In this document: one piece after another, positions 21,554 through 41,900 of the stretch | Layout of the letters: each line of letters starts with the position of its first letter | Numbering within the stretch: position 1 is the first letter of the stretch | Assembly (NCBI GenBank): GCA_964597575.1 | Contig: CAZQXB010000001.1 | Coordinates: 704,595 to 768,594 of the forward strand | Reading direction: 5' to 3' | Source of the DNA: an uncultured Gammaproteobacteria bacterium | GTDB taxonomy: Bacteria; Patescibacteriota; Patescibacteriia; Magasanikbacterales; UBA922 | Length of the DNA stretch: 64,000 bases | Made by a program: the position numbers and the translations under genes | Notes under the pieces: generated by a model | Told to the model about the DNA's origin: nothing | The model's input: the letters and a program-made list of their open reading frames with translations, nothing else | Database searches by the model: none

Positions 21554-23598
21554 TATGATTTTCGTTTCTTCGCTCCTAAAAAGAGCCGATTACCATGTTC
21601 AGGAAACCATGGCACCATAAAACGAAGAATAACACGGGTAACGGTAATTGCGGAAAACATACTCACAAACACCCCGATAATCAGAACGAAGGCAAACCCT
21701 TTCACGAAACTAGAACCGAACCACAGAAGTACGACACAGGTAATAATCGCTGACACATTACCATCATGAATGGCGTTCCATGCTCGATCAAACCCTTCTT
21801 CAACGGCCTTAAACAACGATTTTCCACCCTGAAGTTCTTCTTTTAATCGCTCAAAGATAAGGACATTGTTATCAATCGCCATACCCATAGAAAGAATGAG
21901 ACCGGCAATACCCGATAACGTGAGGGTTACCCCAAAGAGTTTAAAGAGGGCAAGTGTAAGCACGGTGTAGAGGGCTAAACTGAGTGTCGCAATGAGACCA
22001 GGCAATCGGTATACTGCGACCATGAAAATCGCAATAAGAGTGAGCGCAGCCAAACCTGCTTTCAAACTAAGGGTAAGGGAATCAAGTCCGAGGGTCGCTC
22101 CAACCTGCTGCTGACTCACGAGCTCAACCGGTACAGGCAAGGCTCCGGCATTCAACTGTTGGGTCAACAATTTCGCTTCAGCAAAGGTAAAGCCTCCTTG
22201 AATGACGGCTCGGCCATCACTAATGACGGTTTGTACAACCGGTGCACTAATAGGGTTATTATCGAGGAAGATTCCCACTTGTTTCCCCAAATTGCGTTCC
22301 GTAATTTCACGGAAAAGGTCGCGACCTTCGTCGTTAAACTGAAGTGACACCATAACCGCACCGGTTTGCTGGTCACTCACCACTTCTGCGCGTTTAAGCT
22401 GAGAGCCAGAAAGTTTTGTTGGCTTCCAACCGTTATTTGGTGGAACAATATCGTCTTTTGTTTTGGTGGCTACAAAAACATGAGAAAGCTCATATTCTTT
22501 TTCAGGTCCTTCGCTAATCTTATAGATAACATGGTACCCGAATTCTGTTTCGACCGGTCCAATAATTTCTCCGGCTTTGGCTGCTGAAACTGCATCGTCA
22601 AAAGCTTTTACCATTTGACCTTTCGTAAAGCTACCTAAGTCACCGCCAGTTTGTGCGGCCCCAGGTTCTGTTGAGTATTTTTTCGCAAGTTCACTAAAAT
22701 TCTTCGCATTCGCTTCTTTAAAAATATCTTCGGCTTTCTTTCGCGCCTCTTCTTTCGTATACAGTGGCTCGTCACATCCCTGCGACCCTAAATAGCAGAA
22801 TAAAATATGTTTTGCCGCAATAACTGGCGCACCATCGCGTTCTCCCCCGCGCTTTAATATATGGTACCCGAGTGGTGTTTCAATAAGCGTCTGTGATGTT
22901 TGGTCGGGTTTTGCACTCTCAGCCCAGGTGTACATATTTTCATACACCGTTCGCTTATTCACAAAACCAAGATTACCAGCGAGATCCTTACTTTGCGTAT
23001 CATCGCTTAACTCTTTTGCAAGAGTTGCAAAGTCTTCCCCTTTTTTCACGCGAGCAAGAGTGGTATTCGCTTTTTTAAGCGCTTCTGCATTAAAGTCGGC
23101 CAATTGTTTTTCTTCTTCAGCAGTTAATGCACGCGCTGGCTCGTTTGATGGTTCACGAAAATCCAAAATTGGCGTTTCTCCAATCAAACGAATTGCTTGT
23201 GTAATATCTTGAACTCCAGGAAGTTCAACGAGAATACGGTACGCATCCCCTACTTTTGTAGTCTGGACATTCGACTCTGCCACACCGAACGCATTCACCC
23301 GGCGCTCAATAACACCACGCACACCCTCTACGGAATCGGCTTGGTCAGCAGCCGGAAGGCTTGTCACATTTGCCTCATATACTAACTGCGCGCCCCCTTG
23401 TAAATCGAGCCCCAAAGAGAACGATTTTGGTGGAATCCGAGGGATACCGAGCGCAATACTTCCATTGACCGCATCAATAGCTTTATTCGCATAGGCCGGA
23501 AAAATATACACGGCGCAAGCTACGATAAGCACAAAAATACCCGCAATTCCCCATCGGACCTTCGCACGAACTTCAGCTGCAGAAAGTGTTTGTTTCAT
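21553..23598 (-). CDS. secD: protein translocase subunit SecD with two inserted parvulin-type (PpiC) peptidyl-prolyl isomerase domains
   Basis: N-terminal TM, LGLDLQGGAQLVYEA (SecD P1 motif), and a C-terminal six-TM bundle. The periplasmic region holds two rotamase modules: DFATLAKELSDD...LAGNLGFVNK...ETPLGYHILK and NFSELAKKYSTEPGAAQTGGDLGSFTKGQMVKAFDDAV...GPVETEFGYHVIYK. Confidence 0.85.
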   Translation of the reverse strand: MKQTLSAAEVRAKVRWGIAGIFVLIVACAVYIFPAYANKAIDAVNGSIALGIPRIPPKSFSLGLDLQGGAQLVYEANVTSLPAADQADSVEGVRGVIERRVNAFGVAESNVQTTKVGDAYRILVELPGVQDITQAIRLIGETPILDFREPSNEPARALTAEEEKQLADFNAEALKKANTTLARVKKGEDFATLAKELSDDTQSKDLAGNLGFVNKRTVYENMYTWAESAKPDQTSQTLIETPLGYHILKRGGERDGAPVIAAKHILFCYLGSQGCDEPLYTKEEARKKAEDIFKEANAKNFSELAKKYSTEPGAAQTGGDLGSFTKGQMVKAFDDAVSAAKAGEIIGPVETEFGYHVIYKISEGPEKEYELSHVFVATKTKDDIVPPNNGWKPTKLSGSQLKRAEVVSDQQTGAVMVSLQFNDEGRDLFREITERNLGKQVGIFLDNNPISAPVVQTVISDGRAVIQGGFTFAEAKLLTQQLNAGALPVPVELVSQQQVGATLGLDSLTLSLKAGLAALTLIAIFMVAVYRLPGLIATLSLALYTVLTLALFKLFGVTLTLSGIAGLILSMGMAIDNNVLIFERLKEELQGGKSLFKAVEEGFDRAWNAIHDGNVSAIITCVVLLWFGSSFVKGFAFVLIIGVFVSMFSAITVTRVILRFMVPWFPEHGNRLFLGAKKRKS

Positions 23599-27983: not shown

Positions 27984-28163
27984 GAACAATCCTCTCCTTG
28001 CCCAAGGTTGGGCGCCGCACCTGCCAAAAACGACAGATGACTTTTGAGAATACTTGAGTTGCACCAAAAAGTCAAGGCAAAACTTCTTCAATTATAAAGA
28101 GCGTAGAGGGTGATCTACGCTCGGGGAAGAACTCCCGGGAATGGAACGGTATCGGCGTGGGCG

Positions 28164-28763
28164 CTAGAGGGAGATGACCTCGGCGACGCTGCCGAAGGGT
28201 CCGATTCGGACGAACCGGATGTCCGCGACCTTCATGGTGTGGGGGTGGTCGGGGTACTCGCCCCTGAAACCACGCTCATCGTGGGCCAGGGTGAGGTGCG
28301 GGCGCCACTGCCCGCTGACCAGAGGATGTCCGTACTTTTGCACGTTTTCCTGCTGTTCAGGGGTCAACTCGAGCTTCTCCTCGGCCTGTCGCCCGGTCGA
28401 GATGGTCTGGTCACGAAAGTCCGCGATGGCGAGAGCCGCATGGTGCGCCCGGAAGAGGATCCTCGTCAACCTCTCGTTCCCCCTCCACATCACATCCCAG
28501 AAGAGGAACTTTTTCCCGAACTGAGCCAGTGGGCCGAGCGGGATCTCGGTGCCGGAGGCGAGCTCATGCCGACAGTCCTCGAGAATCTCGCGCGCCCGGG
28601 TAACGGACAGCCCTACCACGGACGTGTGGTACAGGGTCAGGTGGGGCAGAGGCGTCTGGAAGCGTGCCCGGTCCGCATATTGGGTGATGAGCCTCTCCAC
28701 CTCTGCCTGGGTGGCTGGGTCAGGGCGGACGACAAAGCCGTACGCTCCACTGTATGAGTTCAT
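28164..28763 (-). CDS. 2H phosphoesterase superfamily protein (LigT / 2'-5' RNA ligase-like)
   Basis: Two H-x-T-x motifs (PHLTLYH and PHLTLAH) spaced about 100 aa apart are the hallmark of the 2H family. About 63% GC with strong GC3 bias. Confidence 0.55.
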   Translation of the reverse strand: MNSYSGAYGFVVRPDPATQAEVERLITQYADRARFQTPLPHLTLYHTSVVGLSVTRAREILEDCRHELASGTEIPLGPLAQFGKKFLFWDVMWRGNERLTRILFRAHHAALAIADFRDQTISTGRQAEEKLELTPEQQENVQKYGHPLVSGQWRPHLTLAHDERGFRGEYPDHPHTMKVADIRFVRIGPFGSVAEVISL

Positions 28764-28890
28764 CTCGTGTCCTCTTTCTGCAAGCAGGATCGCTTGCGAT
28801 TTCTAATCTCTATATACCAAAAAAAAGCTTAAAAGTCAATAATTTAGCTCTCACCCTTCCACATATTCACAAGTCAAACCCTTCTTCCTC

Positions 28891-28919
28891 TTGACAAAAT
28901 ACTAATAAAATGATAAGAT
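28891..28919 (+). promoter_or_regulatory. sigma70-type promoter for gene 29002-29706
   Basis: TTGACA, a 17-nt spacer ending in TG (extended -10), then TAAGAT. The surrounding 140 bp is AT-rich inside a GC-rich island. SD GGGAGGG lies 10 nt before the ATG at 29002. Confidence 0.45.
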
Positions 28920-29001
28920 CGCCTGTCTGTGTACGTCTTTAACCTACATTAGGAAAAGATGCGATGCGCAGAAGGACAAGGCCCTAGGGAGGGCAACGAC
29001 A

Positions 29002-29706
29002 ATGAACAACAACCAGACCAACAAGACCGCCGTGCTGGTGCACGGCATGTTCCTCCAGGCCAAAGGCTGGGAGGAGAACGTCTGGGGCAACACCCAGACC
29101 GGCAAGCTCGGGCGCCTGCCCACGGCCGTGCTCATGTTCGAGAAGTACAGCGCGACCACCATGATCTTCGGCACCGGTGCCAGCATGGAGGGGGACGAGA
29201 AGGAGTCCCAGTTCACGTACCGGACGCTCATGGAGCGGTTCAACGACCTGCGCAACTTCAAGCAGTTCGAGGGCATCGACCTCGTGGCGCTGCGCGAGCG
29301 GATCTCGGCGGGCCGGGTGATCGACACCGAGACGCAGAACACCCTGCAGGAGGTGCAGGCCGCGGCGCGGGCCTGCAACGAGCGCGGGAACACCGACCTG
29401 ATCCAGGTCTCGTCCCCGAGCCACCTCCCCCGCTGCATCCGCGATGGGGTGAAGGCGCTCCAGGCGGCGGAGTTCGCCGGCAAGAAGCCGACGCTCCTCG
29501 CCACCGCGAGCGAGGTCTACTACAGCGGCGCGACCGACGACGACACGCTCATCGTCGAGTACCCCCACCGGGCCGACAGCCCGGCCGAGTACTACGCCCT
29601 GCACGCGGTGCTGAAGCGGCTCATGCCCGCGTTCTACCCCGCCAAGGTCACGGCCGAGGTGCGGAACCGCATCATCGCCGGCATCGACAAGGTCCTCCAG
29701 GGCTGA
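29002..29706 (+). CDS. hypothetical protein, possibly DUF218/YdcF-like (extreme high-GC gene)
   Basis: 234 aa. This is the only frame with normal amino-acid composition; the overlapping long frames are Arg/Gly/Pro-rich artefacts. GC3 is near 95%. There is weak resemblance to YdcF/DUF218 (VLVHGM..., MIFGTGAS, VSSPSHLPRC). Confidence 0.5.
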   Translation: MNNNQTNKTAVLVHGMFLQAKGWEENVWGNTQTGKLGRLPTAVLMFEKYSATTMIFGTGASMEGDEKESQFTYRTLMERFNDLRNFKQFEGIDLVALRERISAGRVIDTETQNTLQEVQAAARACNERGNTDLIQVSSPSHLPRCIRDGVKALQAAEFAGKKPTLLATASEVYYSGATDDDTLIVEYPHRADSPAEYYALHAVLKRLMPAFYPAKVTAEVRNRIIAGIDKVLQG

Positions 29707-29942
29707 TCGCACCTGCCCGCAACCTCTTCCCGTTCTCTACTATCGAGAGCGACGTGAGGTCCCACCTACCGGGCATTCGCCCACCGTCCCTCCATCGACC
29801 ACGTCGGTGCGAGGGACTCTTTTTTTACAAAAAGTATCCACCGAGGTGGATTTTTTGATATTGACAAATACGCGAAAATGTGGTATATTACCTTGCTTCT
29901 GTGATTGAAGATAACCTATTTAACCGTCCTAGGAGGGACATC

Positions 29943-30407
29943 ATGGAAGACGTAGCGTACCAACTTGTCGGCATCTTCACTGGGCTATTCAAGGAGCCGA
30001 TAATCTTGATCATCATCCTTGGGCCCGCACTTGTGATCGCGACCTACTACATCATCGAGGCGATGAGTGGGGAAGACCTCCCGACCAACCACATGATACC
30101 TCGTGTGGGAGGAAAGAAGGGGGCGGGCACGTCTGACGACAACGGGAATCCTGATCACGACCTGTATGCCTCCGACCGCCCCGGAGGGGGACCCGACCAC
30201 GTCGGTGCCATGATCGCCAGTGTCCATGCTGCTGAAGCCGCCGAACAGAGTGGCGATGGCGATGGAAACAACGAAGGCGGCGCGCTCATGCCGCTGTTCG
30301 ACATGTACAACGAGCGCAACGCAGATGGAACACGCGCCTTTGACCTCGACACCGACGGCGACGGCATCCCGAACGCGGTCGACGATCGGCCGAACGATCC
30401 GTTCTAG
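29943..30407 (+). CDS. small membrane-anchored protein with a C-terminal TSP3-like Ca-binding repeat
   Basis: Start set at MEDVAYQLVG. TM helix IILIIILGPALVIATYYII. C-terminal DLDTDGDGIPNAVDDRPNDPF. Confidence 0.4.
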   Translation: MEDVAYQLVGIFTGLFKEPIILIIILGPALVIATYYIIEAMSGEDLPTNHMIPRVGGKKGAGTSDDNGNPDHDLYASDRPGGGPDHVGAMIASVHAAEAAEQSGDGDGNNEGGALMPLFDMYNERNADGTRAFDLDTDGDGIPNAVDDRPNDPF

Positions 30408-30823: not shown

Positions 30824-31774
30824 TTAAATAATTTGGACCTCTTCAACGAGGGTAACTCCAAAGGTATCGTACACGTTCTGCTTTACCTTATCAATGAGTA
30901 TTAAAATTTCTTCAGCCGTAGCCCCGCCTGAATTTAAAATAAAATTTCCGTGCTTTTCACTCACAATAGCTTTTCCTTCTGTCATCCCTTTGGCTCCCGA
31001 TTTTTCAATAAGCCAACCCGCTGACACCAGCCCCTTTTCTTTAAATTCCGGTAAAAGTTCTGGGGCACCTTCTGGAATTTTCGTGCATTCTTCTACAGAA
31101 ACATTTTTGAAAATACACCCGGTCGAAAATCCTTGCGGCTGCGTTCGAATCCGAAACGCCACATAGTCCAAAGCCTTCTTGCGGGCATCACTATTCGAAC
31201 CCGATTGAAGTGCGAGTGTTACCCGAAGAACAACAGCAGACGATGTTTTGAATACGCTATGACGATAATGAAAATCGCAAGCACTTTTTTCATACTGAAC
31301 GACTTCTCCACGATCATACACCATCACACTTTCAACCGACCCGCTCATTTCACTCCCGACCGCTCCGGCATTTCCCCGCACCGCCCCACCAATCGTCCCA
31401 GGAACCCCGACCCCCCACTCAAAACCGGTTAGGCCTGCCTTTATACTCTCATCGGCCACCGCTGCAGTAACACAACCCGCGTCAGCGTACACTTTTGTGC
31501 CTTCAATCGTTATCGCCTGTGCGGCAATTTTGAGAGCCACACCAGAAAAACCAGCATCTCGAACAAGCATATTACTTCCCCCACCGAGAAGAAAAAAAGG
31601 GATACCCTCAGCTTCTAGGTATTGAAGTGCTTCGACTGCTTTTTCCACGGTGGTAACCACAAGAAGAACATCAACCGGACCACCAATTTTAAAGGTAGTG
31701 TACTTTGCGAGAGGTTCGTTCACGCGAACCTTCCCAAAGGTTTTTAGTATGGCGACTTGATCGAGTGAAATCAT
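30824..31774 (-). CDS. murB: UDP-N-acetylenolpyruvoylglucosamine reductase
   Basis: FAD-binding TTFKIGGP...LLGGGSNML, catalytic Ser region, and C-terminal MurB domain. Confidence 0.9.
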   Translation of the reverse strand: MISLDQVAILKTFGKVRVNEPLAKYTTFKIGGPVDVLLVVTTVEKAVEALQYLEAEGIPFFLLGGGSNMLVRDAGFSGVALKIAAQAITIEGTKVYADAGCVTAAVADESIKAGLTGFEWGVGVPGTIGGAVRGNAGAVGSEMSGSVESVMVYDRGEVVQYEKSACDFHYRHSVFKTSSAVVLRVTLALQSGSNSDARKKALDYVAFRIRTQPQGFSTGCIFKNVSVEECTKIPEGAPELLPEFKEKGLVSAGWLIEKSGAKGMTEGKAIVSEKHGNFILNSGGATAEEILILIDKVKQNVYDTFGVTLVEEVQII

Positions 31775-31799: not shown

Positions 31800-33047
31800 A
31801 TGGTTGTCAGTATACTATTCTCTACTATGCTTGGCGAAATTCTACCCAAAAACCCCGTAGCTTACATCACCCGCGACCTTGAGCGGGCACTTGGGATTCC
31901 CAAAACAAACGGGTTCTTCATTATGACAAATGAAACCCCTTTTGTGAAGAGAGCACGCCAAGAACGTTCCGATATTCACACCATACCAAGTGGGACTCTT
32001 TTAGATACTCATGAAATTCTGGCTCACCACCAAACACAGGAATTTTTGAACACAAATGGTATTCGGCATATTATTGTTTTCAAAACAACCACTGCTATTG
32101 AACGAATCGCAAAGGAACAGGGGTTAACTGTTTTAAACCCGCCAGCTGCACTTGCCAATTCCATTGAAGAAAAAATTACTCAGCTTTCCCTCTTACCGGA
32201 AATTCGAGATCTCTTTCTCCCATTTCAAGTCTCCCTTCTTAAGGAGGTCGCTTTTCAAGGCACTCCTTTTGTTTTGCAATTCAACCATTCTCATACCGGA
32301 AGTGGAACAAAATATATTGATTCTGAAAAAACCTTACAGGAACTTCAAACTCAATTTCCCGATCGTCCGGTTCGCACGGCACCGTTTATTCGTGGTCCTC
32401 TGTTCACCAATAATACGGTTGTGACGAAAGAAAAAATTCTCACGGGAAATATCAACTATCAAATCACTGGTCTTGCCCCATTTACCCATAATCGCTTTGC
32501 CACAATTGGAAACGACTGGGCTCTGCCATACACCCTTCTCACAAACGAACAAAAAAAGAACTATGAAAACATTGCCGTGCGGGTCGGTGAAGTTCTTCAA
32601 GCACTCGGCTGGCGCGGGCTATTTGGCATTGATGTCCTCTTCGACGAAACCACAAACAAATTTTGGCTTCTCGAAATCAACGCCCGCCAACCTGCTTCAG
32701 CAACGTATGAATCACACCTCCAAAAGAAGGCGGGGCCGGGCATGACCACAATGGAGGCCCACCTCTTGGCACTTCTTAATACATCAGTTGAGGGCCCGCT
32801 TCAATCTATTTTAGGCGGGGCTCAAATTACCCAAAAAATTGTAGGAAAAATACCTCATTCTGAAATACAAGAAAAAATAGAGAAAGAATTAGAATCACAG
32901 GGCTACGCTGTCACCCCCTACTCGAACACAGAGCGAGAGCAAGATTGGTTACGCATACAGCACGATGACGGCGGGTTTATGCAAATGCATAACACACTGA
33001 ACGCCCAAGCCAACAAATTAAAAACAACTCTTGAAGCGATTTTATGA
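31800..33047 (+). CDS. ATP-grasp superfamily ligase of unknown specificity
   Basis: The C-terminal half carries the ATP-grasp core GWRGLFGIDVLFDETTNKFWLLEINARQPAS (Mg/ATP-binding E-x-N). Start chosen at the first ATG (MVVSILF); the track ORF begins at a TTG 12 nt upstream. Confidence 0.65.
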   Translation: MVVSILFSTMLGEILPKNPVAYITRDLERALGIPKTNGFFIMTNETPFVKRARQERSDIHTIPSGTLLDTHEILAHHQTQEFLNTNGIRHIIVFKTTTAIERIAKEQGLTVLNPPAALANSIEEKITQLSLLPEIRDLFLPFQVSLLKEVAFQGTPFVLQFNHSHTGSGTKYIDSEKTLQELQTQFPDRPVRTAPFIRGPLFTNNTVVTKEKILTGNINYQITGLAPFTHNRFATIGNDWALPYTLLTNEQKKNYENIAVRVGEVLQALGWRGLFGIDVLFDETTNKFWLLEINARQPASATYESHLQKKAGPGMTTMEAHLLALLNTSVEGPLQSILGGAQITQKIVGKIPHSEIQEKIEKELESQGYAVTPYSNTEREQDWLRIQHDDGGFMQMHNTLNAQANKLKTTLEAIL

Positions 33048-33814
33048 GCACTCTTCACGAAGAAACAAAACAAATGATTCGCGCGTATGCCAATTTGGCC
33101 ATTGGTCAAGTACATGTTCGCACTCCCTACATGAATAATCGCCGTCTTGGGCTTCGGGGAGCGCTTGGAGTTCTTGTAGGCAAAGGAACGCCTACTGAAA
33201 TTGAAGAAGAGGTCGTCATCATGGCACTGAAAGAGCATATAAACTTGAATGACCTCACTCCAGAACTTGCCACACGTTTTTTAATTGATCACAAACTGGG
33301 CGTTGACTGCTCGGGATACGCATTTCATCTTTTGGAAACAGAACTCTACGCACGTCATAAAAAAAAGCTCTCGCACGTCATCCATTTACCACTCATTAAA
33401 AATCCGTTTCGAAGAATTTTTGCCAAAATGCAATGCGTGAAAAATGTAGGCGTACGAACACTTGCACACGCTAAAAATAGTGCCCCTGTCCTTCTCAAAA
33501 ACATTCAGGCGGGAGACATGATTGTAGCACTTCAGATTAAGAAAGATCCGGCACGCCACCACCTTCTTCTTGTAACCGACGTCGTCGCTGACAACTATAT
33601 TACTGAAATCCGCTATACCCACAGCCCAGAATGGACCATCGGGGGCCAATATGGCCACGGGGTCCGAAGTGGCCTTATTCGAGTTACGAACCTCGAAAAA
33701 CCACTCTTAGCTCAAATTTGGGAAGAAGGCGGTATGACTGTCGAAGAAAATGGCACCTATCTTGAATACGCTTCGGCTGAAACCATCGATATCCGCAGGT
33801 TAAACTGCCTCTAA
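33044..33814 (+). CDS. putative papain-fold Cys peptidase/amidase (NlpC/P60- or CHAP-like)
   Basis: GVDCSGYAFHLL matches the NlpC/P60 catalytic-Cys motif (DCSG), with downstream His candidates (HHLLLV, HSPEW). The ATGA overlaps the ATP-grasp stop, suggesting translational coupling. Confidence 0.45.
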   Translation: MSTLHEETKQMIRAYANLAIGQVHVRTPYMNNRRLGLRGALGVLVGKGTPTEIEEEVVIMALKEHINLNDLTPELATRFLIDHKLGVDCSGYAFHLLETELYARHKKKLSHVIHLPLIKNPFRRIFAKMQCVKNVGVRTLAHAKNSAPVLLKNIQAGDMIVALQIKKDPARHHLLLVTDVVADNYITEIRYTHSPEWTIGGQYGHGVRSGLIRVTNLEKPLLAQIWEEGGMTVEENGTYLEYASAETIDIRRLNCL

Positions 33815-33884
33815 CCCTTACCCTGGCCATTTCGCATAAATAGTTGTAAAAACTGCTCTTTTTTGATAGGCTTCTTCTAGGTCT

Positions 33885-35015
33885 ATGATTATCCCTCTCG
33901 AGAGCATTGAACTGCTTCGAACAATTTTTGTGTACGCCCTCCTCTCGGGGGTTGTTGCGTTTGCTTGGGCACCGCTTCTCATAAAGCTCCTCTATAAGTA
34001 CAACATTACCCGAAATAACCCCTACGATGCGACGCTCGCCATTGAAGCGCGAAAATCAAAAGCAGGGGTACCGATCATGGGAGGACTCCTTATTATTGTA
34101 ACGGTTGCCCTCGTAACTGTTTTTTTTAACTGGGAAAGAAAATTTACCTGGATGCCTATTTCGGTCATGCTTCTCTCCGCACTCCTTGGTGGAGTTGATG
34201 ACCTTCTGAACATATTCGGGGAACGGCGAAGAAACAGAAAACTCTCGCACATTATCCGACTGATCCGTGTTCACAAAGACTGGAAAGAGCGCGCCTGGCT
34301 CACCCTCACCCTTCCTTGGGCAATATTTAAACGCGCCAGCCTTTGGCTTGGGTCAAACCCGGGTCGAGGGCTCCATGTACACGAACGCCTCATTCTCCAA
34401 TTTACGGCTGGAGCTATTACCGCCTGGTGGATTTTTTTTAAACTTGCAGAAAGCTGGCGCACCATTCACATTCCTTTTGACGGATACATCAATATTGGTT
34501 TTTGGATCATTCCCCTTATTATCTTTTTCGTTGTCGCTACCGCTAATGCCGTCAACTTTTCTGACGGCATGGATGGACTCGTGGGAGGGTCTCTTCTCAT
34601 TACGTTTTCCGCACTTACCCTACTTGCCTGGATTGAAGGGTATTCCTCGATTGCATATATGAACGCAACGACGGTTGGCGCGCTCATTGCCTATACCTAT
34701 TTCAATATCAAACCAGCACGCTTCCAAATGGGTGATGTAGGGTCGCTTGGGCTTGGGGCACTGCTCGCGGTAAATACGATGGTTATGAACCACATGATTC
34801 TTCTTCCACTGTTTGGTTTTATTTTTTATATTGAACTGGGAAGCGTTCTTATTCAGGTGTTTGGTCGCCACATTCTTGCACGTCGTATTTTCCGCATGGC
34901 GCCGATTCACCACCATTTTGAACTCCGCGGTTGGAGCGAAGAAAAAGTGGTCATGCGTTTTTGGGTCATCCACGCCGCCTTTGTTCTCCTCGGCATGTGG
35001 ATTGCCCTCTACTAG
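33885..35015 (+). CDS. mraY: phospho-N-acetylmuramoyl-pentapeptide transferase
   Basis: NAVNFSDGMDGL, DVGSLGLGA and PIHHHFE motifs with 10 TM helices. Confidence 0.9.
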   Translation: MIIPLESIELLRTIFVYALLSGVVAFAWAPLLIKLLYKYNITRNNPYDATLAIEARKSKAGVPIMGGLLIIVTVALVTVFFNWERKFTWMPISVMLLSALLGGVDDLLNIFGERRRNRKLSHIIRLIRVHKDWKERAWLTLTLPWAIFKRASLWLGSNPGRGLHVHERLILQFTAGAITAWWIFFKLAESWRTIHIPFDGYINIGFWIIPLIIFFVVATANAVNFSDGMDGLVGGSLLITFSALTLLAWIEGYSSIAYMNATTVGALIAYTYFNIKPARFQMGDVGSLGLGALLAVNTMVMNHMILLPLFGFIFYIELGSVLIQVFGRHILARRIFRMAPIHHHFELRGWSEEKVVMRFWVIHAAFVLLGMWIALY

Positions 35016-35019
35016 ACGT

Positions 35020-35664
35020 ATGTATCTTTCCTGGGGTGAAAAAAACGTCGACACCGCAAACCTGGCAGATATAAACACAGCCTATGCTTCTGGGTATGTC
35101 GCAACTCGTGTTGAACGGGGCACGTTCCAACAAACACGAAGTCTCCGTATTGATTTAAGCGTATTTGAGCTCTCAAGCGAGAACCGCCGAGTGCTGAAAA
35201 AAACCGAAGCGCTGACAATGGAAACACTTCCTCTCCCCCTCTCCGACTACCACTGGTCTATTGGTAAACTTGGAAAAGATTTTTATAGCGAAAAGTTTGG
35301 TGACGGCACGTTTAGTGCAAATAAAATAAAAGAGCTTCTGACCGATAAAGAAAAAAGTAATTTTAATCGCGTGCTTCGTTTTTCTTTAGACGGGAGAGTT
35401 GTCGGTTACACCATTTGTTTAGAAACGAACGAGATGGTCCATTACTCATACCCTTTTTACGATCTTTCTCTACAAGTACCGAACCTGGGCCTTGGCATGA
35501 TGCTCCGAGCCATTGCACGTGCGAAGGAGACAGGGAAAAAATATATTTATTTAGGCTCATTCCAACGCCCAACAGATACTTACAAACTTCAATTCGAGGG
35601 ATTAGAATGGTTTGACGGGAAGGAGTGGCAAAAGGATCCTTCACCTCTCAAACAACTTGTTTAA
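35020..35664 (+). CDS. ATE/Bpt-family (arginyl/leucyl-tRNA-protein transferase-like) aminoacyl-tRNA-dependent transferase
   Basis: The C-terminal block LGLGMMLRAIARAKETGKKYIYLGSFQRPTDTYKLQFEGLEW matches the ATE_C consensus (LG...L..I..AK..G..Y.YLGY.I.....M.YK..F.P.E). Starts 5 nt after the mraY stop. Confidence 0.5.
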   Translation: MYLSWGEKNVDTANLADINTAYASGYVATRVERGTFQQTRSLRIDLSVFELSSENRRVLKKTEALTMETLPLPLSDYHWSIGKLGKDFYSEKFGDGTFSANKIKELLTDKEKSNFNRVLRFSLDGRVVGYTICLETNEMVHYSYPFYDLSLQVPNLGLGMMLRAIARAKETGKKYIYLGSFQRPTDTYKLQFEGLEWFDGKEWQKDPSPLKQLV

Positions 35665-35668
35665 AAAT

Positions 35669-36355
35669 ATGCCGCAAACGAATGCTTGGGAAAAAGAATA
35701 TAAAAATAGTCAACTTTTGCATTTTCATCCAGAACCACAAAAGGATACGCTTCGTTTTTTAAAATATCTTAAAAAAGAACACGATTTTCGCCTAGACGGA
35801 AAAACGGTCCTTGATCTGGGATCTGGCACCGGCCGAAACGCAAATCACATGGCGAGCCTTGGTGCCGCTGCAACTGGCATTGAAATCTCACCAACAGCGA
35901 TTCTTATTGCAGAAGAAGCGGCACGAGAAAAAGGAGTGCGAGTAAAATATATTCGTCAAAGCATGGGGGAATCGTACCCTTTTCCTGATGCGTCATTTGA
36001 TCTCATCATCGATGTCGTGTCCTCAAACTCCCTCACCGAAAAAGAACGCGGAACCTATCTCGAAGAAGCAAGCCGAGTACTCAAACCCGGAGGCTTCATG
36101 TTTGTAAAAGCTTTAGCACTCGATGGAGACAAAAATGCCAAAACACTTCTTCAAGATTCCCCTGGACCAGAAAAAGATACCTATATTATGAAAGAGCTTG
36201 GATTGACTGAGCGTGTATTTCGTCGTGAAGACCTATTATCACTCTACGGGAAATACTTTACCGTTCTCGACCTTGAAAAAAAGGAGAGCTATCCGTGCAT
36301 GAATGGAAAAAGTTATAAACGACAATTTTGGCTTCTTGCCTTACAAAAGACGTAG
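35669..36355 (+). CDS. class I SAM-dependent methyltransferase
   Basis: Motif I VLDLGSGTGRN and post-I acidic residue. 229 aa. Starts 5 nt after the previous stop. Confidence 0.7.
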   Translation: MPQTNAWEKEYKNSQLLHFHPEPQKDTLRFLKYLKKEHDFRLDGKTVLDLGSGTGRNANHMASLGAAATGIEISPTAILIAEEAAREKGVRVKYIRQSMGESYPFPDASFDLIIDVVSSNSLTEKERGTYLEEASRVLKPGGFMFVKALALDGDKNAKTLLQDSPGPEKDTYIMKELGLTERVFRREDLLSLYGKYFTVLDLEKKESYPCMNGKSYKRQFWLLALQKT

Positions 36356-36382
36356 GCCTTCCAAAAGCACCTTTCCTATCCT

Positions 36383-37807
36383 GTGATGAAATCTATGAAA
36401 CACATTCACTTTATTGGTATCTGTGGAGTAGCGATGAGCGCACTTGCCATTGCTTTTCATAAAAAAGGATACCGTGTTACTGGTAGCGATGTTGGGTTTT
36501 ACCCTCCAATTTCAACACACCTCGAAAAACAAGGGGTGAGCTACTATGCAGGCTGGCATCCAGAAAAAGTCTTAGCTGAATTTGTATCCAAAAACTCAAA
36601 CGACGAATACCTCGTGATTGTGGGAAACGTAGCAAGCTCGAACAATCCAGAATGGCTCTTTGTAAAAGAAAACGGCATTCCCTATCTTTCTTATCCAGAA
36701 GCCGTAGCAACATTTTTTGTCCGCGAACACTCTATCGTGGCAGCCGGAACATACGGGAAAACTACCTCAACCACACTTTTGACTTGGATTTTAGCTCAAG
36801 CGGGTTTTGACCCTAGTTACATGTTTGGCGGCCTCACCATCGACCCCACGGACGCAGCAGCTATTACTGAAAGCTCTTGGAGCATTCTTGAAGGCGACGA
36901 ATATAAATCGAGCCGCTTTGATCTTCGGCCAAAATTTAGCCATTACAAACCCACGCACCTTCTTCTTACCGGCATGTCTTGGGATCATGTAGACGTCTAC
37001 CCTACAGAAGAATCGTATGTTGAAGCATTTACTACTCTTATAGCAGGAATGCCAAAACAAGGGCTCATTGTAGCGAATCAAGACGATTCCCGGGTAGAAT
37101 CCTTAACAAAAACATTTACCGGAACACGAATCACCTATGGTATGGGCCCTGAAGCCAATGTTCGCTACAGCAGTATAGAGCAAAAAAAATCAGGACTTAC
37201 TTTTACCATTACTGCAGACGAAAAAGAATGGGTAGTAACCAGCCCCATGCTTGGAGCTTACCAAGCAGCAAATATTACCGGGTGCTTTGCTCTGGCTCGT
37301 GCCATTGGCATTTCTCCAGAAAAAATAATCGCAAGCATCGCCTCTTTCAGTGGTATTAAGCGCCGGCTTGAAAAACGCCTCGCTGACCCAGTAACCATTT
37401 TTGACGATATCGCACACTCACCTGCCAAAGCAGCCTCTGTTCTCCAAACGCTCCGCGAACTTACGAGCGGAAAATTGATTGCTGTTTTTGAACCAAACAG
37501 TGGAAACCGGGAAGAGAGTGCCAAACCCCTCTATACCCATGCGTTTGACCACGCAGACGAGGTTATCATTCCCCGGCTTACCAACATCAAAATTGACCTT
37601 ACCAAAAAAGAACGCCCTATGGATGGCGAGACCCTCACTGAAGTAATTGCACAAACGCACAAGAATGTTCATCACATTGACGACGACGAACAACTTGTTA
37701 CCCACCTCAAAAAAACCGCCAGACCGAACGACTGCATTGTGTTTCTCGGTTCCCACGGTTTCCGCGGAATGATTGAACAGACGGTTGAACTATTCGCGAA
37801 AAATTGA
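36383..37807 (+). CDS. UDP-N-acetylmuramate ligase of the MurC/Mpl family (Mpl-like signature)
   Basis: HFIGICGVAMSALA and TGSDVGFYPPIST resemble Mpl (YPPMS). Also has the Mur-ligase P-loop GTYGKTTST and a C-terminal domain. Confidence 0.85.
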   Translation: MMKSMKHIHFIGICGVAMSALAIAFHKKGYRVTGSDVGFYPPISTHLEKQGVSYYAGWHPEKVLAEFVSKNSNDEYLVIVGNVASSNNPEWLFVKENGIPYLSYPEAVATFFVREHSIVAAGTYGKTTSTTLLTWILAQAGFDPSYMFGGLTIDPTDAAAITESSWSILEGDEYKSSRFDLRPKFSHYKPTHLLLTGMSWDHVDVYPTEESYVEAFTTLIAGMPKQGLIVANQDDSRVESLTKTFTGTRITYGMGPEANVRYSSIEQKKSGLTFTITADEKEWVVTSPMLGAYQAANITGCFALARAIGISPEKIIASIASFSGIKRRLEKRLADPVTIFDDIAHSPAKAASVLQTLRELTSGKLIAVFEPNSGNREESAKPLYTHAFDHADEVIIPRLTNIKIDLTKKERPMDGETLTEVIAQTHKNVHHIDDDEQLVTHLKKTARPNDCIVFLGSHGFRGMIEQTVELFAKN

Positions 37808-37811
37808 AGAA

Positions 37812-37976
37812 CCTACTTCCCCTCATCAGTCACCTCAACGACAGCGTTTTTGTCATTCATCTCAAGGACAAGCAAAGAAATGCCGCACATGGGGCATTCC
37901 ACAACTTGATCTTTTGCGAAGGTGTGATACGATGAGGTATCAATAGAATTTTTACATTCTGGGCAGATAAAATGCA
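37812..37976 (-). CDS. LysW-like / zinc-ribbon small protein (54 aa)
   Basis: MHFICPECKNSID...VVECPMCGISLLVLEMNDKNAVVEVTDEGK has two CPxC pairs and an acidic tail. Below the ORF-track length cutoff. Convergent with the ligase gene. Confidence 0.35.
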
Positions 37977-38037
37977 TATGGGTATGTGAAGAGAATACCC
38001 ATAGTATACAGAAGCCAGCCCAAATATTTCAAGAGCT

Positions 38038-38925
38038 ATGAAGACCCCGCAAATTACCTACCCTTTGCTTGCCGCCGCCCTTGGCGTTTCTGAGGTTATT
38101 TTAAAACGGGAAGATCTTCACCCCTACGGCTCTCACAAAGGAAGATCTATCCCGCTCATGATGAAACACTATGTCAAAGAAGGATGGCAGTCTTTTTCTC
38201 TTTCTTCATCAGGAAATGCAGCCCTGGCCGCAATTCATACTCTTCTTCAGCACAATAAGAATAACCCCGGAAAAGAAATTACCCTCAACATTTATGTTGG
38301 CGAACACATTGACAGCGGAAAATTAAAACGTCTTTCCGAGGCAAGCGAAAATAACACTCGTATTGCTATTCTTCAAGACGCGCGCCCAAAGCAGCGGGCA
38401 TTTCAAGATGAGGCAGAAAAAAAAGCCAAGAATCTTCGCCAATCAACCGATGATTTAGCGCTTGTAGGCTATCATACTTTAGCCGATGAACTTCAAAAAA
38501 TTGAACATCTGAGCGATATTTTCATACCCACGTCCTCCGGCACCACCGCCCAAGGCCTCCTTGAAGCTTTTATCTCTCGAGAAAAACCGATACGCATTCA
38601 CATTGTGCAGACAACCGCTTGTTTTCCTTTAGCGGAAACATTTGTTCAGGAACTTCCTACAAAAACAGAGACATCCTTGGCAGGCGCTATTGTTGATCAC
38701 GTGGCCAACCGGAAACAAGCACTCACCTCTCTCCTTCAAACCCACCAAGGAAGTGGTTGGATAATCGCAGATGAGGAAATCTCTACAGCTCTTACCCTCG
38801 TCAAACAAACATGCAACCTTTCTCTTTCGGCAAATGGTGTTCTCGGCGTGGCTGGGCTTCAAAAAATGAGAAAGCAAGGCCTTCATGTTGAAGGAGCAGC
38901 AGTGTGTATCGTTACTGGACAGTAA
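38038..38925 (+). CDS. fold-type II PLP-dependent enzyme (PALP / tryptophan-synthase-beta-like family)
   Basis: LKREDLHPYGSHKGRS (Schiff-base Lys) and SSSGNAALAAI (the S-G-N motif). 295 aa. Confidence 0.6.
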   Translation: MKTPQITYPLLAAALGVSEVILKREDLHPYGSHKGRSIPLMMKHYVKEGWQSFSLSSSGNAALAAIHTLLQHNKNNPGKEITLNIYVGEHIDSGKLKRLSEASENNTRIAILQDARPKQRAFQDEAEKKAKNLRQSTDDLALVGYHTLADELQKIEHLSDIFIPTSSGTTAQGLLEAFISREKPIRIHIVQTTACFPLAETFVQELPTKTETSLAGAIVDHVANRKQALTSLLQTHQGSGWIIADEEISTALTLVKQTCNLSLSANGVLGVAGLQKMRKQGLHVEGAAVCIVTGQ

Positions 38926-38945: not shown

Positions 38946-41900
38946 TTACTCTTTCTCTAAAGAAACATCTTCGGCAATAAACGAAGCACCTTCTGCTTTT
39001 GCCTTATCCGAGATGCTTGAAAGCTCTTTTGCCACATACCCTGTCCGTGTAAAATGGAGCGTGTACGTATTATTTCCCACCAAAAAGGCATACTGGCCTT
39101 TTTTATTTGTCACAAAAGTATCAACGAGCTTATTGTACTCAGACGCAAACAGACGGACGACGGTGCCAGGAAGTGCCTGTTTTGTTTCTCCATCAAATAC
39201 CTGACCCCAGTGTCGAGGTTTCTTTGGTACTAAAAATTTCGTAAAGAGGATATACGCAAAAAGCTGGAGAAAACCAAACAGAACAGCCACCCAAGTAAAG
39301 GTCACAAGCAAACTTGCAGCAAGGATAAAAAATCCAGACAATGCTACACCATGCTGAACCACACGAAGACGACGTTGCCTCAAAATTCTCTCCGGTGTTT
39401 TCTGCTCTACCCCAACAGGATCAAGGGCAATCGGGTAGCCTAAACCCACACTTCCATCCTCAACCACAATAAGTTCCCCATGATAGACGTCTGCAAACTG
39501 ACCATCATTCACTAAGTCTAGTGGAATAATTTTTGTCGGTTCAAAACCACTCTTTCCAACCTCAATGCGGTATTCCCCGGGTTCAGCTAAAAAGACATAC
39601 CGACCCTGCACATCAGTGACACGAGTTTGAACAATTTTATTGGTGGTATTGTTAATCAAGCGAACTACGGCCAAATCAATCGGTGCTTTCGACAAACTGT
39701 GGTACACCACGCCCCATTCTTTTTGTTTGGTACGCCCAAGAAGAAGAAAAGGCTGAAGAAAAACATAGTAGAACAGCGGCACGCCGGTTCCGGCAAAGGC
39801 CGGAGCTAAGGCAAGAACAGGAAGAACACCAACCGTTGGCACGACAATCGTTTTGGTGACTGCTTCTACCTCAGGATCCTCGGCCCAAGCGCGAGCACCA
39901 CTTAATAAATCAAGAAGAGCCTGACGTGCAGCTTCAAATGCACTGAGTTGCTCTTGAGAAGCATTCGCTTCTGTTCCCCCAACTTCATTACCACCTTCTC
40001 CGCCAGGCCCTGCAAGGCGTATCCGATACGTGATCGATGGATTAAGAACATTGTTCGTTACCGTAAACACTCCTGCATCGACTGCGTTTTTTCCTGATTC
40101 TTGAAGCGCAAGTCGATACGTACCATTTGGCACCATAAAGACATAACTTCCATCACTTGCGGTAGTTACGGGATTCATCTGTCCATACGCAGTTCCGTCC
40201 CAGAGCTCGGTCGTATCACCTCCACCAATTCCAGCAGTATAGAGCATAACTTGTATACCCGCTACTGGGGCCAAACGTTCTTCGTCATATACGATTCCGC
40301 GAGGTAAACTTTCAATAACCACTTGATGAACATCGGTTACGTCTCGATAATACGTAATAAGCTCTCCCGGATATTGTGCTGGCTCACCGAGTGGGATGTC
40401 GGCTTCATACGAACCAGAATCTAAATCAAAAGCCAAAGGATACGTCGATTCGTTGAACTTCAGTTCGATCAGATACACTCCCTGTTCAGCCAAGCCTTCT
40501 CCATTCACATTCACAGAAAGAGAATCCCCTGCCACACCCGCAATTCGAATAAGTTCAGTGTCTTTTGTAACTTGTACTGGCGCAACACCAACACTTCCCC
40601 CTGTCCGCTTTGTAGTAAGAGTAAAATCAACCACCGTTGAAGTTGCAGCTACAGGTTCTGTTGGAGCTGGAGCACATTGAGCACCTGTGCGACCACCGAT
40701 AATCTTTCCATCCCCTACCGCAAGGTGGGAATTTGGCCAAAGAAGAAAATTATTTTCTTCTACCCCATTTTTAAGTAAACGAAAGCGAATTTGGTGTTTC
40801 CACAGGGCCTCGAGGTAAAGCATTTCAATTTTCACCCTTTCCTCCACACACTCTTTGACTACCTCAACGACAACATCATTATAATCTTTATCAATATCAT
40901 TTGAATCTTCAAACAAAATACGTTGAATATCCGTTGCATAATCAACAACTCGCACATTTGGCCCTCCCATATGCCGTTCGGTTCCATCAGGGTTCACAAT
41001 ATACATGTCATACGACATGGTGTTGCAATCAAACGCACACATATTGCCCGAAACAGGAGTGAACACAGCCGGAGCAGTTGACGACACGCGCACGGCTTGT
41101 GGAGGCGGAGACGGTGGTCTTGCTGGAGGCACGACCGGTGGGCGTGCCGGAGGTGGTGATACAGGGTTTGGTGTCGCAGGCGGAGGCGTTACTGGAGGGT
41201 TTAGGGTAGGTTCTGGCACTGGCTCTGGTTGTACAGGAGGCGCCACTTGAGGCGGCGGCACTGGTGCGACCGAAGCAGCGCTTCCGCATCCGTTTACCGT
41301 ATCAAGCCGCACGTCAGCGGTAAGATGCGGACTCATCCTTCCTCGCCCATTCTGAAATTTTACATGAAGGGTGTATATTCCATCACTTGTCGAAGGCAGC
41401 TGCCACGAAACAACCTCTACCTCACCTTTCATAGAACGCCATACACCCACAAACGGATAGGTATTTTCAAGCAAGTAAGAAACAGCTTCTCCAGATCGGA
41501 GAGTTACGTTCACAAAAGGTGAAGTTACACAGGCGGGCGCTTCAATAGTACCCCCAATTTCACCACCGAAATAGATAAATGAACCACCCGGGGATGGAGA
41601 AGGAGTCGGGCTTGGACTCGGCGAAGGTGAAGGACTCGGTGACGGAGCAGGTGGTGGGGGCGGCGGAGGTGGGGGTGGGGTTGGAGGAATATCACTAATG
41701 AGTGCAGAAGCCGACGCTGTATTATTTATTGACGTGATATCAGCCCCACTATCGAAAATGGTTGCTGTATTTTCCAATGATCCAGTAAAACTCCCCAGTG
41801 CGGTAACAGCAAACACTACCCCACCACTTCCACTTACAGCAACAGTACCAATGGTTGTTGTACACGTTGTTCCCGCTACCGCCTCATTCGAACAGCTCCA

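Follow-up and report, generated by a model that had tools for sequence, protein, structure and literature searches.

The systems closest to the locus described here are transferases that use aminoacyl-tRNA and several systems built around a ligase. Members of the Fem family (FemX of Weissella viridescens, S. aureus FemXAB and pneumococcal MurM/MurN) are genetically associated with peptidoglycan synthesis, and Fem enzymes proper consist of two GNAT domains. In transferases of the ATE1/Bpt type, a Tyr-Lys pair stabilises the tetrahedral intermediate, and in ATE1 a Ser/Glu pair binds arginine. The YK motif of ATE1 contains the catalytic Lys that is also found in FemX, and the ATE_N domain of ATE1 forms the pocket for the acidic N-terminus (PMC9351520).

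Among the ligase systems, the D-aspartate ligase Asl, which serves the Enterococcus/Lactococcus cross-bridge, is an ATP-grasp enzyme encoded with cell-wall genes; it is not known to be paired with or fused to an NlpC/P60 hydrolase or a NUDIX domain. Glutathionylspermidine synthetase/amidase (GspSA) belongs to thiol/polyamine metabolism. In LysW/LysX systems, a small zinc-ribbon carrier with the signature C-terminus EDWGE is accompanied by a RimK/LysX-type ATP-grasp ligase, an amide hydrolase, a kinase, a reductase and an aminotransferase, and the gamma-glutamyl amide bonds of these systems are of the type cut by NlpC/P60 DL-endopeptidases. Peptidoglycan recycling combines YkfC/MpaA-type peptidases with the ligase Mpl.

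The locus lies in a window of 64,000 nucleotides (the whole stretch of DNA analysed) from an uncultured, ultra-small CPR/Patescibacteria bacterium of the Magasanikbacteria type. Its features are as follows.

30824..31774, minus strand: murB (UDP-N-acetylmuramate dehydrogenase), transcribed away from the cassette; NF010480, PF02873, PF01565
31800..33047, plus strand: ATP-grasp carboxylate-amine ligase, 415 aa; NCBIfam PRK06524-like
33044..33814, plus strand: ORF2, cytoplasmic NlpC/P60-fold cysteine amidase/peptidase with an extra N-terminal domain of ~85 aa
33885..35015, plus strand: mraY (phospho-MurNAc-pentapeptide translocase); PF00953, TIGR00445
35020..35664, plus strand: ATE_C-only aminoacyl-tRNA transferase-like protein, 214 aa; ATE_C
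35669..36355, plus strand: class-I SAM-dependent methyltransferase, accessory; PF13649, PF08241
36383..37807, plus strand: MurC-type Mur ligase (UDP-MurNAc:amino acid/peptide ligase); three Mur ligase domains
37813..37977, minus strand: LysW-like zinc-ribbon protein, 54 aa; PF21344, just below cut-off
38038..38925, plus strand: ThrC/threonine-dehydratase-like PLP enzyme (fold type II), divergent from the LysW-like gene; PF00291

The six-gene plus-strand run divergent from murB that a preliminary description of this DNA had reported is present in full, with its coordinates confirmed, and the protein lengths match the source gene calls (ATP-grasp 415, ORF2 256, mraY 376, ATE-like 214 and methyltransferase 228 aa); the operon structure is established. 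The ATGA coupling of the ATP-grasp gene and ORF2 was located at 33044-33047, where the ATG of ORF2 overlaps the ATP-grasp TGA; the ATE-like gene is separated from each neighbour by 4 nt (35016-35019 and 35665-35668), not by 5 nt as first described. A scan for promoter and terminator consensus sequences found nothing exceeding shuffled controls.

The identities of the mur genes are likewise established. MurB matches NF010480 at 267 bits (cut-off 259), and also PF02873 and PF01565; MraY matches PF00953 at 99 bits and TIGR00445 at 184.9 bits, slightly under the cut-off of 192. The Mur ligase has all three domains complete and scores 260 bits with TIGR01082 (murC) and 244 with TIGR01081 (mpl), both under the cut-offs. 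Its best solved relative is 3hn7 (169 bits), a Psychrobacter Mpl, with MurC structures next. For its orthologue in the cluster of another CPR locus, L095, the murC score is likewise 260 and the mpl score 220, and the enzyme looks like the housekeeping MurC of the lineage. The earlier assignments of a MurC/Mpl-type ligase and of a SAM methyltransferase (matching PF13649 and PF08241) are both supported by profile matches.

Gene order was surveyed in 80 species-level Magasanikbacteria-type genomes, with denominators that vary by neighbour. The gene directly upstream of the ATE-like gene is mraY in 71/72 loci, murC lies downstream within 3 kb in 60/61, and the ATP-grasp gene and ORF2 lie upstream in 41/47; because this linkage recurs across the genomes surveyed, the arrangement is non-random. 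The position of murB is the same in 51 related loci, and the link between the transferase and cell-wall operons recurs in hundreds of related genomes. The methyltransferase, which had been counted as a cassette member, occupies this position in only ~6/80 loci (L004, L007, L018, L021, L058 and L068) and is accessory, outside the conserved cluster. Conversely, two conserved partners that travel with ORF2-like genes, the LysW-like protein and the ThrC-like PLP enzyme, had been overlooked. The locus is best explained as a core peptidoglycan-precursor operon (murB, mraY ... murC) with lineage-conserved accessory enzymes built in, and the genes once read as inserted are better seen as standing members of the peptidoglycan clusters of these lineages.

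The ATE-like protein matches ATE_C above the Pfam gathering score, and Bpt-type NCBIfam models match it at E 3e-16, so the ATE/Bpt-like assignment withstood profile search; the Bpt equivalog scores are all far under their cut-offs (59.6 vs 170). Its structural neighbours are nearly all aminoacyl-tRNA transferases, the best being human ATE1 (206/214 residues aligned), and a segment of the form R-x-x-x-x-F-x-x-S-x-x-RR is common to it and ATE1/Bpt. Y188-K189 is invariant across the whole ATE-like family and aligns to the YK motif of human ATE1, the motif holding the catalytic Lys that the Fem family shares (PMC9351520). The arginine-pocket residues S273/E277 of ATE1 align to M160/A164, the replacement of the arginine-binding Glu by Ala coming from a weak profile alignment (E 0.44). 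The ATE_N domain with its Cys4 zinc finger, present in ATE1/Bpt, is absent in all 58 family members checked. Whereas Fem enzymes have two GNAT domains, in some cases plus a coiled coil, this protein has a single GNAT core of ~215 aa, gives no match to the FemAB Pfam model (PF02388) and is closer to ATE1/Bpt in sequence and structure; its activity on peptidoglycan precursors is putative. Unlike ATE1/Bpt genes, its gene stands in mur operons, not beside Clp/ClpS-type genes. The 214-aa protein is a minimal member of the ATE1/Bpt branch, with the GNAT catalytic core and Tyr-Lys pair kept and the zinc-finger ATE_N lost.

The ATP-grasp assignment is also supported, with a best NCBIfam match that is PRK06524-like (E 9e-19) and with PF02655 carried by homologues. 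The Mg/ATP-site residues D278, E292 and N294 are invariant, and Ddl, YheCD and archaeal Ddl-like models match it weakly. The fold of ORF2 is that of NlpC/P60 enzymes, and its Cys/His is invariant. The two genes, translationally coupled here, are fused in some genomes, and other natural fusions join the ATP-grasp to NUDIX; NUDIX domains fused to it or encoded beside murC hint at a nucleotide-linked substrate. Relative to GspSA, the domain order is reversed and the gene context is that of peptidoglycan. The likeness to Asl is one of enzyme class and gene context: both are ATP-grasp ligases encoded with cell-wall genes, and D-amino-acid supply genes (alanine racemase, PLP enzyme) are near in related contexts, as the racemase is for Asl.

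The preliminary description had allowed that homologous cassettes might never be linked to mur genes elsewhere. Homologous genes are so linked in Magasanikbacteria and, rearranged, in another CPR group, where the ATE-like gene is placed between murE and murC in a cluster with overlapping start and stop codons: ftsI - murE-like - ATE_C - murC - murB - murA - murF-like - mraY - ORF2-like - LysW-like - PALP. Two ORF2-like paralogues occur within this group's cluster. A further order, in L087, is murC - ATE_C - PgeF-like. Among the immediate neighbours of wider-family members (n=113) are 24 alanine racemases and 22 Mur ligases, and PurD-like ATP-grasp ligases are adjacent or one gene off in ~20 loci. 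Association with mur genes is not universal in the family, since one relative adjoins a class IIb aminoacyl-tRNA synthetase at a site lacking neighbouring mur genes and another is fused to PPDK-type domains.

We consider it moderately probable that an ATE/Bpt-derived enzyme does a Fem-like job on peptidoglycan peptides here, together with an ATP-grasp/NlpC-P60 make-and-break pair. The ATE-like protein would no longer tag proteins for degradation; it would use aminoacyl-tRNA to attach a non-basic amino acid to a free amine on a peptidoglycan peptide. Candidate acceptors are UDP-MurNAc-peptide, lipid I/II, and peptides or amino acids en route into them, and the role would be a Fem-like one that another branch of the superfamily has arrived at. 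On substrates of this class, the ATP-grasp/NlpC-P60 pair would form and break an amide or isopeptide linkage. In the preferred model, the ATP-grasp acts like D-aspartate ligase and joins an amino acid to the amine on the side chain of residue 3 (that the added amino acid is D-configured and acidic is a guess); the added residue would create an acidic N-terminus of the type recognised by ATE/Bpt enzymes, which the ATE-like enzyme would extend, and the NlpC/P60 enzyme would edit or reverse the isopeptide. Substrate class, donor, acceptor and step order are what we infer, and the original idea of a stem-peptide substituent being installed or trimmed is plausible from gene context.

A carrier-protein pathway is an unlikely alternative. 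The LysW-like protein would serve as amino-group carrier or acceptor through its C-terminus, with the ATP-grasp in LysX-like loading or extension, the tethered group being modified by the ThrC-like PLP enzyme and perhaps also by the ATE-like transferase, and the NlpC/P60 enzyme acting like LysK on a gamma-glutamyl or Glu-Lys bond, as its family's specificity would allow; the non-standard amino acid or short peptide released would finally be joined to UDP-MurNAc(-peptide) by the Mur ligase. Like LysW, the ~54-aa protein is a zinc ribbon matching the LysW globular domain (PF21344, 26.4 vs cut-off 27) with a conserved, acidic, Lys-containing tail, which reads ...(V/I/A/L)(D/E)EGK in 61/61 Magasanikbacteria loci with a recovered ORF (DEGK 60, EEGK 1); counterparts ending ...EEK or ...EEKG adjoin PALP in other CPR clusters. 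The LysW-like and PALP genes are a divergent pair in Magasanikbacteria (median spacing 78 nt), and PALP homologues terminate the peptidoglycan clusters in L084 and L095. The tight trio ORF2-like - LysW-like(-) - PALP of other CPR bacteria suits a carrier pathway no less than it suits direct precursor editing. As in LysW systems, an ATP-grasp ligase and an amide hydrolase are in the neighbourhood, and the ATP-grasp is fused to ORF2-like proteins in places. However, the EDWGE end is absent, the ATP-grasp falls outside the RimK/LysX type (TIGR00768 E 0.025) and was not found in other CPR loci, and kinase, reductase and aminotransferase partners (LysZ, LysY, LysJ-type genes) were not seen in the flanks; the partner is instead the PLP enzyme (PF00291, 98 bits; threonine synthase models match sub-threshold). 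Such enzymes require a free alpha-amine. An amino-group tether would block it, and no bypass is required because the L095 cluster contains MurC, MurE-like and MurF-like ligases.

Slightly less credence goes to conventional functions performed by non-orthologous enzymes, that is, precursor supply and salvage with no new substituent. The ATP-grasp would be a divergent D-Ala-D-Ala (or D-Ala-D-X) ligase, ORF2 a cytoplasmic recycling peptidase of YkfC or LD-carboxypeptidase type, and the Mur ligase would double as a recycling ligase like Mpl. In keeping with this, ddl often adjoins murB/murC; the next NCBIfam matches after PRK06524 are TIGR01205 and an archaeal Ddl-like model (both E 0.0014), and the best Pfam match is ATPgrasp_YheCD, then Dala_Dala_lig_C. 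ORF2 has among its structural neighbours YkfC-like 3h41 and gamma-D-Glu-diamino-acid endopeptidases, the murC and mpl scores of the ligase are nearly equal and its best solved relative is 3hn7; a cytoplasmic NlpC/P60 enzyme beside a MurC/Mpl-ambiguous ligase resembles recycling; on higher-GC contigs, ATE-like genes adjoin alanine racemase and ATP-grasp ligases. But Ddl models give only 15-18 bits against cut-offs of ~245, the L095 orthologue favours murC by 40 bits, the ligase here resembles housekeeping MurC, and the flanks showed no recycling genes of the LdcA, AmpG or NagZ type. Nor does this reading account for the ATE-like gene, for the fusions of ATP-grasp and peptidase or for those with NUDIX. 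It is very improbable that the ATE-like protein is instead a genuine Bpt-type N-degron transferase, placing Leu or another residue on N-terminal Asp/Glu of proteins and riding as a passenger in cell-wall operons: its ATE_C and Bpt-type matches, the ATE1 structural match and the JGI annotation of homologues as arginyl- or leucyl-tRNA-protein transferase agree with this, but the equivalog shortfall and the family-wide loss of the pocket-forming ATE_N (PMC9351520) do not, and translational coupling inside mur clusters of two CPR groups, in different orders, is unusual for passengers. The linkage of an ATE1/Bpt relative and a ligase/peptidase pair to mur operons points to a still undescribed peptide chemistry of the cell wall.

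The clustering of genes around mraY and murC claimed in the preliminary description was confirmed, and the gene calls of the source gave the same lengths. The stop codon of the ATP-grasp ligase gene overlaps the start codon of the next gene, ORF2, as ATGA. The gene for the ATE-like protein, a 214-aa relative of ATE1 and Bpt, lies 4 nt from mraY on one side and 4 nt from a methyltransferase gene on the other, where gaps of 5 nt had been reported.

Genes of the cluster in the window
30824-31774, minus strand: murB
31800-33047, plus strand: ATP-grasp ligase
33044-33814, plus strand: ORF2, with a predicted NlpC/P60 fold
33885-35015, plus strand: mraY
35020-35664, plus strand: ATE-like gene
35669-36355, plus strand: class-I SAM methyltransferase
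36383-37807, plus strand: MurC-type ligase
37813-37977, minus strand: 54-codon zinc-ribbon (LysW-like) gene
38038-38925, plus strand: PLP enzyme of fold type II (PALP), similar to ThrC, SbnA and threonine dehydratase

A scan for consensus promoters and terminators performed no better than shuffled controls, and no paralogues of the cassette genes were found elsewhere in the window or in its flanks. The window, with a G+C content of ~45%, is part of a 913,817-bp contig and carries genes typical of Patescibacteria/CPR (SecD fused to PPIase domains, SecA, ComEC, an L,D-transpeptidase and PilM). Within its periplasmic region the SecD/SecF-type translocase subunit (21553-23598, minus strand) carries an insertion of two PPIase domains of the PpiC type, and the L,D-transpeptidase (54324-55097, minus strand) is of the YkuD type with bacterial TSP3 repeats, which bears on the cross-link type of the organism. 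A predicted 1,498-aa surface protein with Pro-rich linkers (PPPPP, SPSP) and C-terminal transmembrane segments is encoded at 38946-43442 on the minus strand, and a 57%-identical homologue occupies the same position in a related locus (L004). A segment at 28000-30000 has a higher G+C content (59%, compared with ~45% in the rest of the window), and numerous ORFs overlap there on both strands; it includes genes resembling 2'-5' RNA ligase and, weakly, DUF218, and may be foreign DNA.

Close relatives of the ATE-like protein (~215 aa) number at least 1,928; most have no source name, and the named ones are labelled Patescibacteria or Magasanikbacteria. With one genome scanned per GTDB species, 349 carriers came to light, and the best 80 of these were analysed. 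Informatively titled records among these 80 were Magasanikbacteria-type or other Patescibacteria; many of the records for loci L004-L083 are titled ‘uncultured Gammaproteobacteria bacterium’, which we read as placeholder or wrong taxonomy labels. The recurrent gene order was hpf and murB on the minus strand, followed by ATP-grasp, ORF2, mraY, ATE and murC and then by the LysW-like gene (minus strand) and PALP, with variable inserts before mraY, after ATE and after murC. Within the best 80 of the 349 genomes, mraY was directly 5’ of the ATE-like gene in 71 of 72 loci, murC lay no more than 3 kb 3’ of it in 60 of 61, and ATP-grasp plus ORF2 were found upstream in 41 of 47. The gene assignments made earlier were largely right, except that the methyltransferase was rejected as a cassette member, since it was found at its position in only ~6 loci. 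Other occasional inserts encode DUF2238 and a NUDIX hydrolase. A NUDIX gene (~185 aa, with a perfect Nudix box) lies between murC and the LysW-like gene in 23 Magasanikbacteria loci; elsewhere NUDIX hydrolases are encoded between ATP-grasp and ORF2 or fused to ATP-grasp (examples are at 3288-4955 in L002 and 4666-5085 in L003); the cluster in the window has none. The fusions hint at UDP-linked substrates. The cassette had been described as ‘inserted’ in a mraY-murC operon. We instead favor the conservative reading that this is the lineage’s own peptidoglycan-precursor operon, native rather than a foreign insertion, with extra conserved enzymes.

The ATE-like protein has two Pfam matches only, PF04377 (ATE_C, the GNAT domain; 32.5 bits, cut-off 25) and PF13480 (Acetyltransf_6). 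ATE_C was also matched by 51 of 58 members of the wider family. In ATE1, the ATE_N domain bears a Cys4 zinc site beside the pocket that receives the acidic N-terminus (PMC9351520). This domain (PF04376) was absent from the window protein and from all 58 relatives, and the family alignments contained no conserved Cys. The residues Y188-K189, which align to the ‘YK’ of human ATE1, were invariant in both family alignments (A2 and A4). This Lys corresponds to the catalytic one that KlAte1 (K304) and FemX (K305) share and that is essential in KlAte1 (PMC9351520). Arginine is an unlikely donor for the ATE-like protein, because the arginine-pocket residues S273 and E277 of KlAte1 align, albeit weakly, to M160 and A164. 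NCBIfam models for Bpt and arginyltransferases matched far under their cut-offs (the best Bpt model at 59.6 bits vs 170). Searches of the PDB with phmmer and profiles gave nothing useful before the wide family profile was used, which gave a weak match to ATE1. An AlphaFold model built from 31 homologues had a pLDDT of 94.9.

Only 569 relatives of the ATE-like protein turned up when 1.84 billion representatives were searched exhaustively with a profile, and a metagenome scan added 80 further loci. A second-tier representative, P0350 (263 aa, ~33% identical), whose accessions we take to be CPR (UniRef name ‘Candidatus’), is encoded in a division and cell-wall cluster with the order rsmH, ftsL-like, ftsI, murA, murE, ORF2-like (minus strand), murE-like, ATE_C, murC-like and ORF2-like, and further on NUDIX (minus strand) and PALP; the ATE_C gene overlaps its neighbors at start and stop codons. 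The low-GC loci of this other CPR group have the recurrent order ftsI, murE-like, ATE_C, murC, murB, murA, murF-like, mraY, ORF2-like, LysW-like (minus strand) and ThrC-like PALP. In this group the MurE-like ligase encoded directly 5’ of ATE_C has no N-terminal domain (405-431 aa) and still scored above the MurE cut-off; L084 also encodes a full-length MurE. Cytoplasmic NlpC/P60 proteins similar to ORF2 are standing members of the group’s peptidoglycan clusters. On higher-GC contigs (mean 56% G+C) an alanine racemase gene is followed by ATE_C in 24 loci (L116-L167), often with a PurD-like ATP-grasp gene just upstream, which is directly adjacent in 5 loci. Kinship of this PurD-like protein to the ATP-grasp ligase of the window was considered and rejected, as none was detectable beyond the shared fold. 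Three further contexts were each seen once: murC, ATE_C and a PgeF-like gene (L087, where an adjoining 54-aa gene is not LysW-like), a class IIb aminoacyl-tRNA synthetase directly after ATE_C, and ATE_C fused to PPDK_N and PEP-utilizer domains in an 809-aa protein. Judged from predicted gene functions, the common denominator of these contexts is amino-acid ligation for the cell-wall peptide, represented by Mur and ATP-grasp ligases and by the supply of D-alanine.

Features of the related loci
L084, 4903-5697 (minus strand) and 9103-9807 (plus strand), and L095, 14606-15463: ORF2-like, those of L084 being paralogues in one cluster (hhalign probability 100%, E 5e-42)
L084, 5739-7004, and L095, 6787-8004: N-terminally short MurE-like ligase
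L084, 11491-11643; L095, 15460-15633; L101, 15558-15734; L108, 16106-16264 (all minus strand): LysW-like counterparts
L084, 11446-12555, and L095, 15697-16641: PALP
L120, 634-3757, and L155, 4086-7266: examples of the module of PurD-like ATP-grasp, alanine racemase and ATE_C
L088, 7001-9430: PPDK-fused ATE_C relative
L086, 6240-8568: ATE_C relative adjoining the synthetase

The ATP-grasp protein matched NF005096 (E 9e-19). Its Pfam matches were under cut-off in the window protein itself, and its homologues carry PF02655. Residues D278, E292 and N294, which bind Mg/ATP and include the E-x-N motif, were invariant among the homologues, and a profile search of the PDB returned generic ATP-grasp matches only. 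By these sequence criteria it is a bona fide ATP-grasp enzyme outside every characterised subfamily.

ORF2 had no sequence match in Pfam (including PF00877), NCBIfam or the PDB. Precomputed PF00877 matches were found for its homologue P0144 and for an ATP-grasp-ORF2 fusion protein, P0222, one each. Its fold is papain-like alpha+beta, as in the NlpC/P60 (C40) cysteine peptidases. Among 40 homologues, C89 (in the motif G-V-D-C-S-G), S90 and H173 were invariant and H193 was present in at least 90%. The ORF2 profile gave few and weak PDB matches, all of them NlpC/P60 proteins aligned at the catalytic Cys, with the D-C-S-G motif in register with Spr, MepS and LytE. Read by eye, the translation showed no hydrophobic signal sequence at its N-terminus. 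Some ATP-grasp proteins of ~675 aa are fusions with ORF2 as their C-terminal half, and ORF2 is therefore cytoplasmic.

The protein encoded between the MurC-type ligase and PALP genes matched PF21344, the LysW zinc-ribbon globular domain, at 26.4 bits (cut-off 27), and its homologues have precomputed matches. Its C-terminus, ...(V/I/A/L)(D/E)EGK, was found in all 61 Magasanikbacteria ORFs recovered, 60 of which end in DEGK; the tails in the other CPR group are ...EEEK, ...VEEK and ...EEKG. The LysW-like gene is always divergent from that of the ThrC-like PLP enzyme, and in the other CPR group it adjoins the ORF2-like gene. PALP closes the peptidoglycan clusters of both CPR groups, with 29-35% identity between them, and might be the source of a D-amino acid or of a non-standard one.

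Taken with gene context, the best-supported reading is that the ATE-like protein has a Fem-like function, with aminoacyl-tRNA as the probable donor of a non-basic amino acid and a free amine on a stem-peptide precursor as the probable acceptor, since the enzyme class is established, the catalytic residues are intact and the gene is translationally coupled to mur genes. This coupling is found in two CPR groups whose gene orders differ. The preliminary description had proposed modification of the stem peptide or an envelope polymer, which is a reasonable hypothesis. The Fem enzymes (FemXAB and MurM) have two GNAT lobes and PF02388, whereas the ATE-like protein consists of one 214-aa core without PF02388; what they would have in common is the link to peptidoglycan precursor synthesis, which for the ATE-like protein is drawn from gene context alone. 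A rival explanation is that it is a true N-degron enzyme with no cell-wall role. Its fold agrees overall with those of ATE1/Bpt transferases; it has no zinc-binding ATE_N domain, and its neighbors are mur genes. Another holds that non-orthologous enzymes do ordinary Ddl and recycling jobs here. The Ddl models matched the ATP-grasp ligase at only ~15-18 bits, with cut-offs near 245 (TIGR01205 at 17.7 vs 245.65). The MurC-type ligase has all three Mur ligase domains (PF01225, the N-terminal UDP-binding domain, PF08245 and PF02875), and scored 260.2 bits with the murC model (cut-off 335.1) and 244.4 with mpl (cut-off 388.7); its top PDB match was 3hn7, and the L095 orthologue scored 260 bits for murC vs 220 for mpl. 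We downgraded the idea that it is an Mpl fed by pre-made peptides, as genes of the MurC, MurE-like and MurF-like kinds all occur in the other CPR cluster.

A third rival centers on the LysW-like protein, whose fold and acidic, Lys-containing C-terminus suggest a carrier or acceptor protein. Its genes are linked to those for NlpC/P60 proteins and PLP enzymes and, in Magasanikbacteria, for ATP-grasp, and on this basis one can envisage that CPR bacteria build or alter part of the peptidoglycan peptide along a route that other bacteria are not known to use. The ATP-grasp enzyme, PALP and the ATE-derived transferase would act on the LysW-like carrier, whose Glu/Lys tail resembles a stem peptide, by loading, extending or modifying it, and the cytoplasmic NlpC/P60 protein would release the product for the Mur ligases. 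The LysW signature tail, of the EDWGE type, was not found in the LysW-like proteins, nor were partner genes for LysX, LysZ, LysY, LysJ or LysK in the flanks. We consider this route improbable; if true, it would amount to a branch of cell-wall precursor synthesis that is templated by a protein and depends on tRNA.

Within the Fem-like reading, a scheme can be drawn by analogy. ATE/Bpt enzymes recognise a residue at the N-terminus that has a carboxylate close by, the enterococcal D-aspartate ligase adds an amino acid to the position-3 side-chain amine, and NlpC/P60 relatives cleave gamma-D-Glu isopeptides. Given that recognition by ATE/Bpt enzymes, the ATP-grasp ligase might, in the manner of D-aspartate ligase, first couple an amino acid (possibly acidic and of D configuration) to the side-chain amine of position 3, the ATE-like enzyme would then extend the added residue, and the NlpC/P60 partner would edit or reverse the bond. 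This scheme is attractive but unproven.

Our literature searches returned no prior description of the cluster or of the ATE_C-only family. To our knowledge, tRNA-dependent additions to peptidoglycan are made only by Fem-type enzymes, and ATE1/Bpt enzymes act only as taggers of protein N-termini. We regard the cluster as a candidate for tRNA-dependent addition of amino acids in cell-wall synthesis, for which CPR bacteria would use an enzyme derived from ATE/Bpt, together with unusual partners. The candidate genes (ATE-like, ATP-grasp, ORF2, LysW-like and PALP) are few, and their products small and soluble, so direct testing is possible in vitro or in a heterologous host, and they may yield lineage-specific targets or markers. 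A zinc-finger-less ATE/Bpt branch in CPR mur operons, if true, would broaden the known enzymology of ATE proteins and would point to an unrecognised cell-wall peptide chemistry in a very large uncultivated bacterial radiation.
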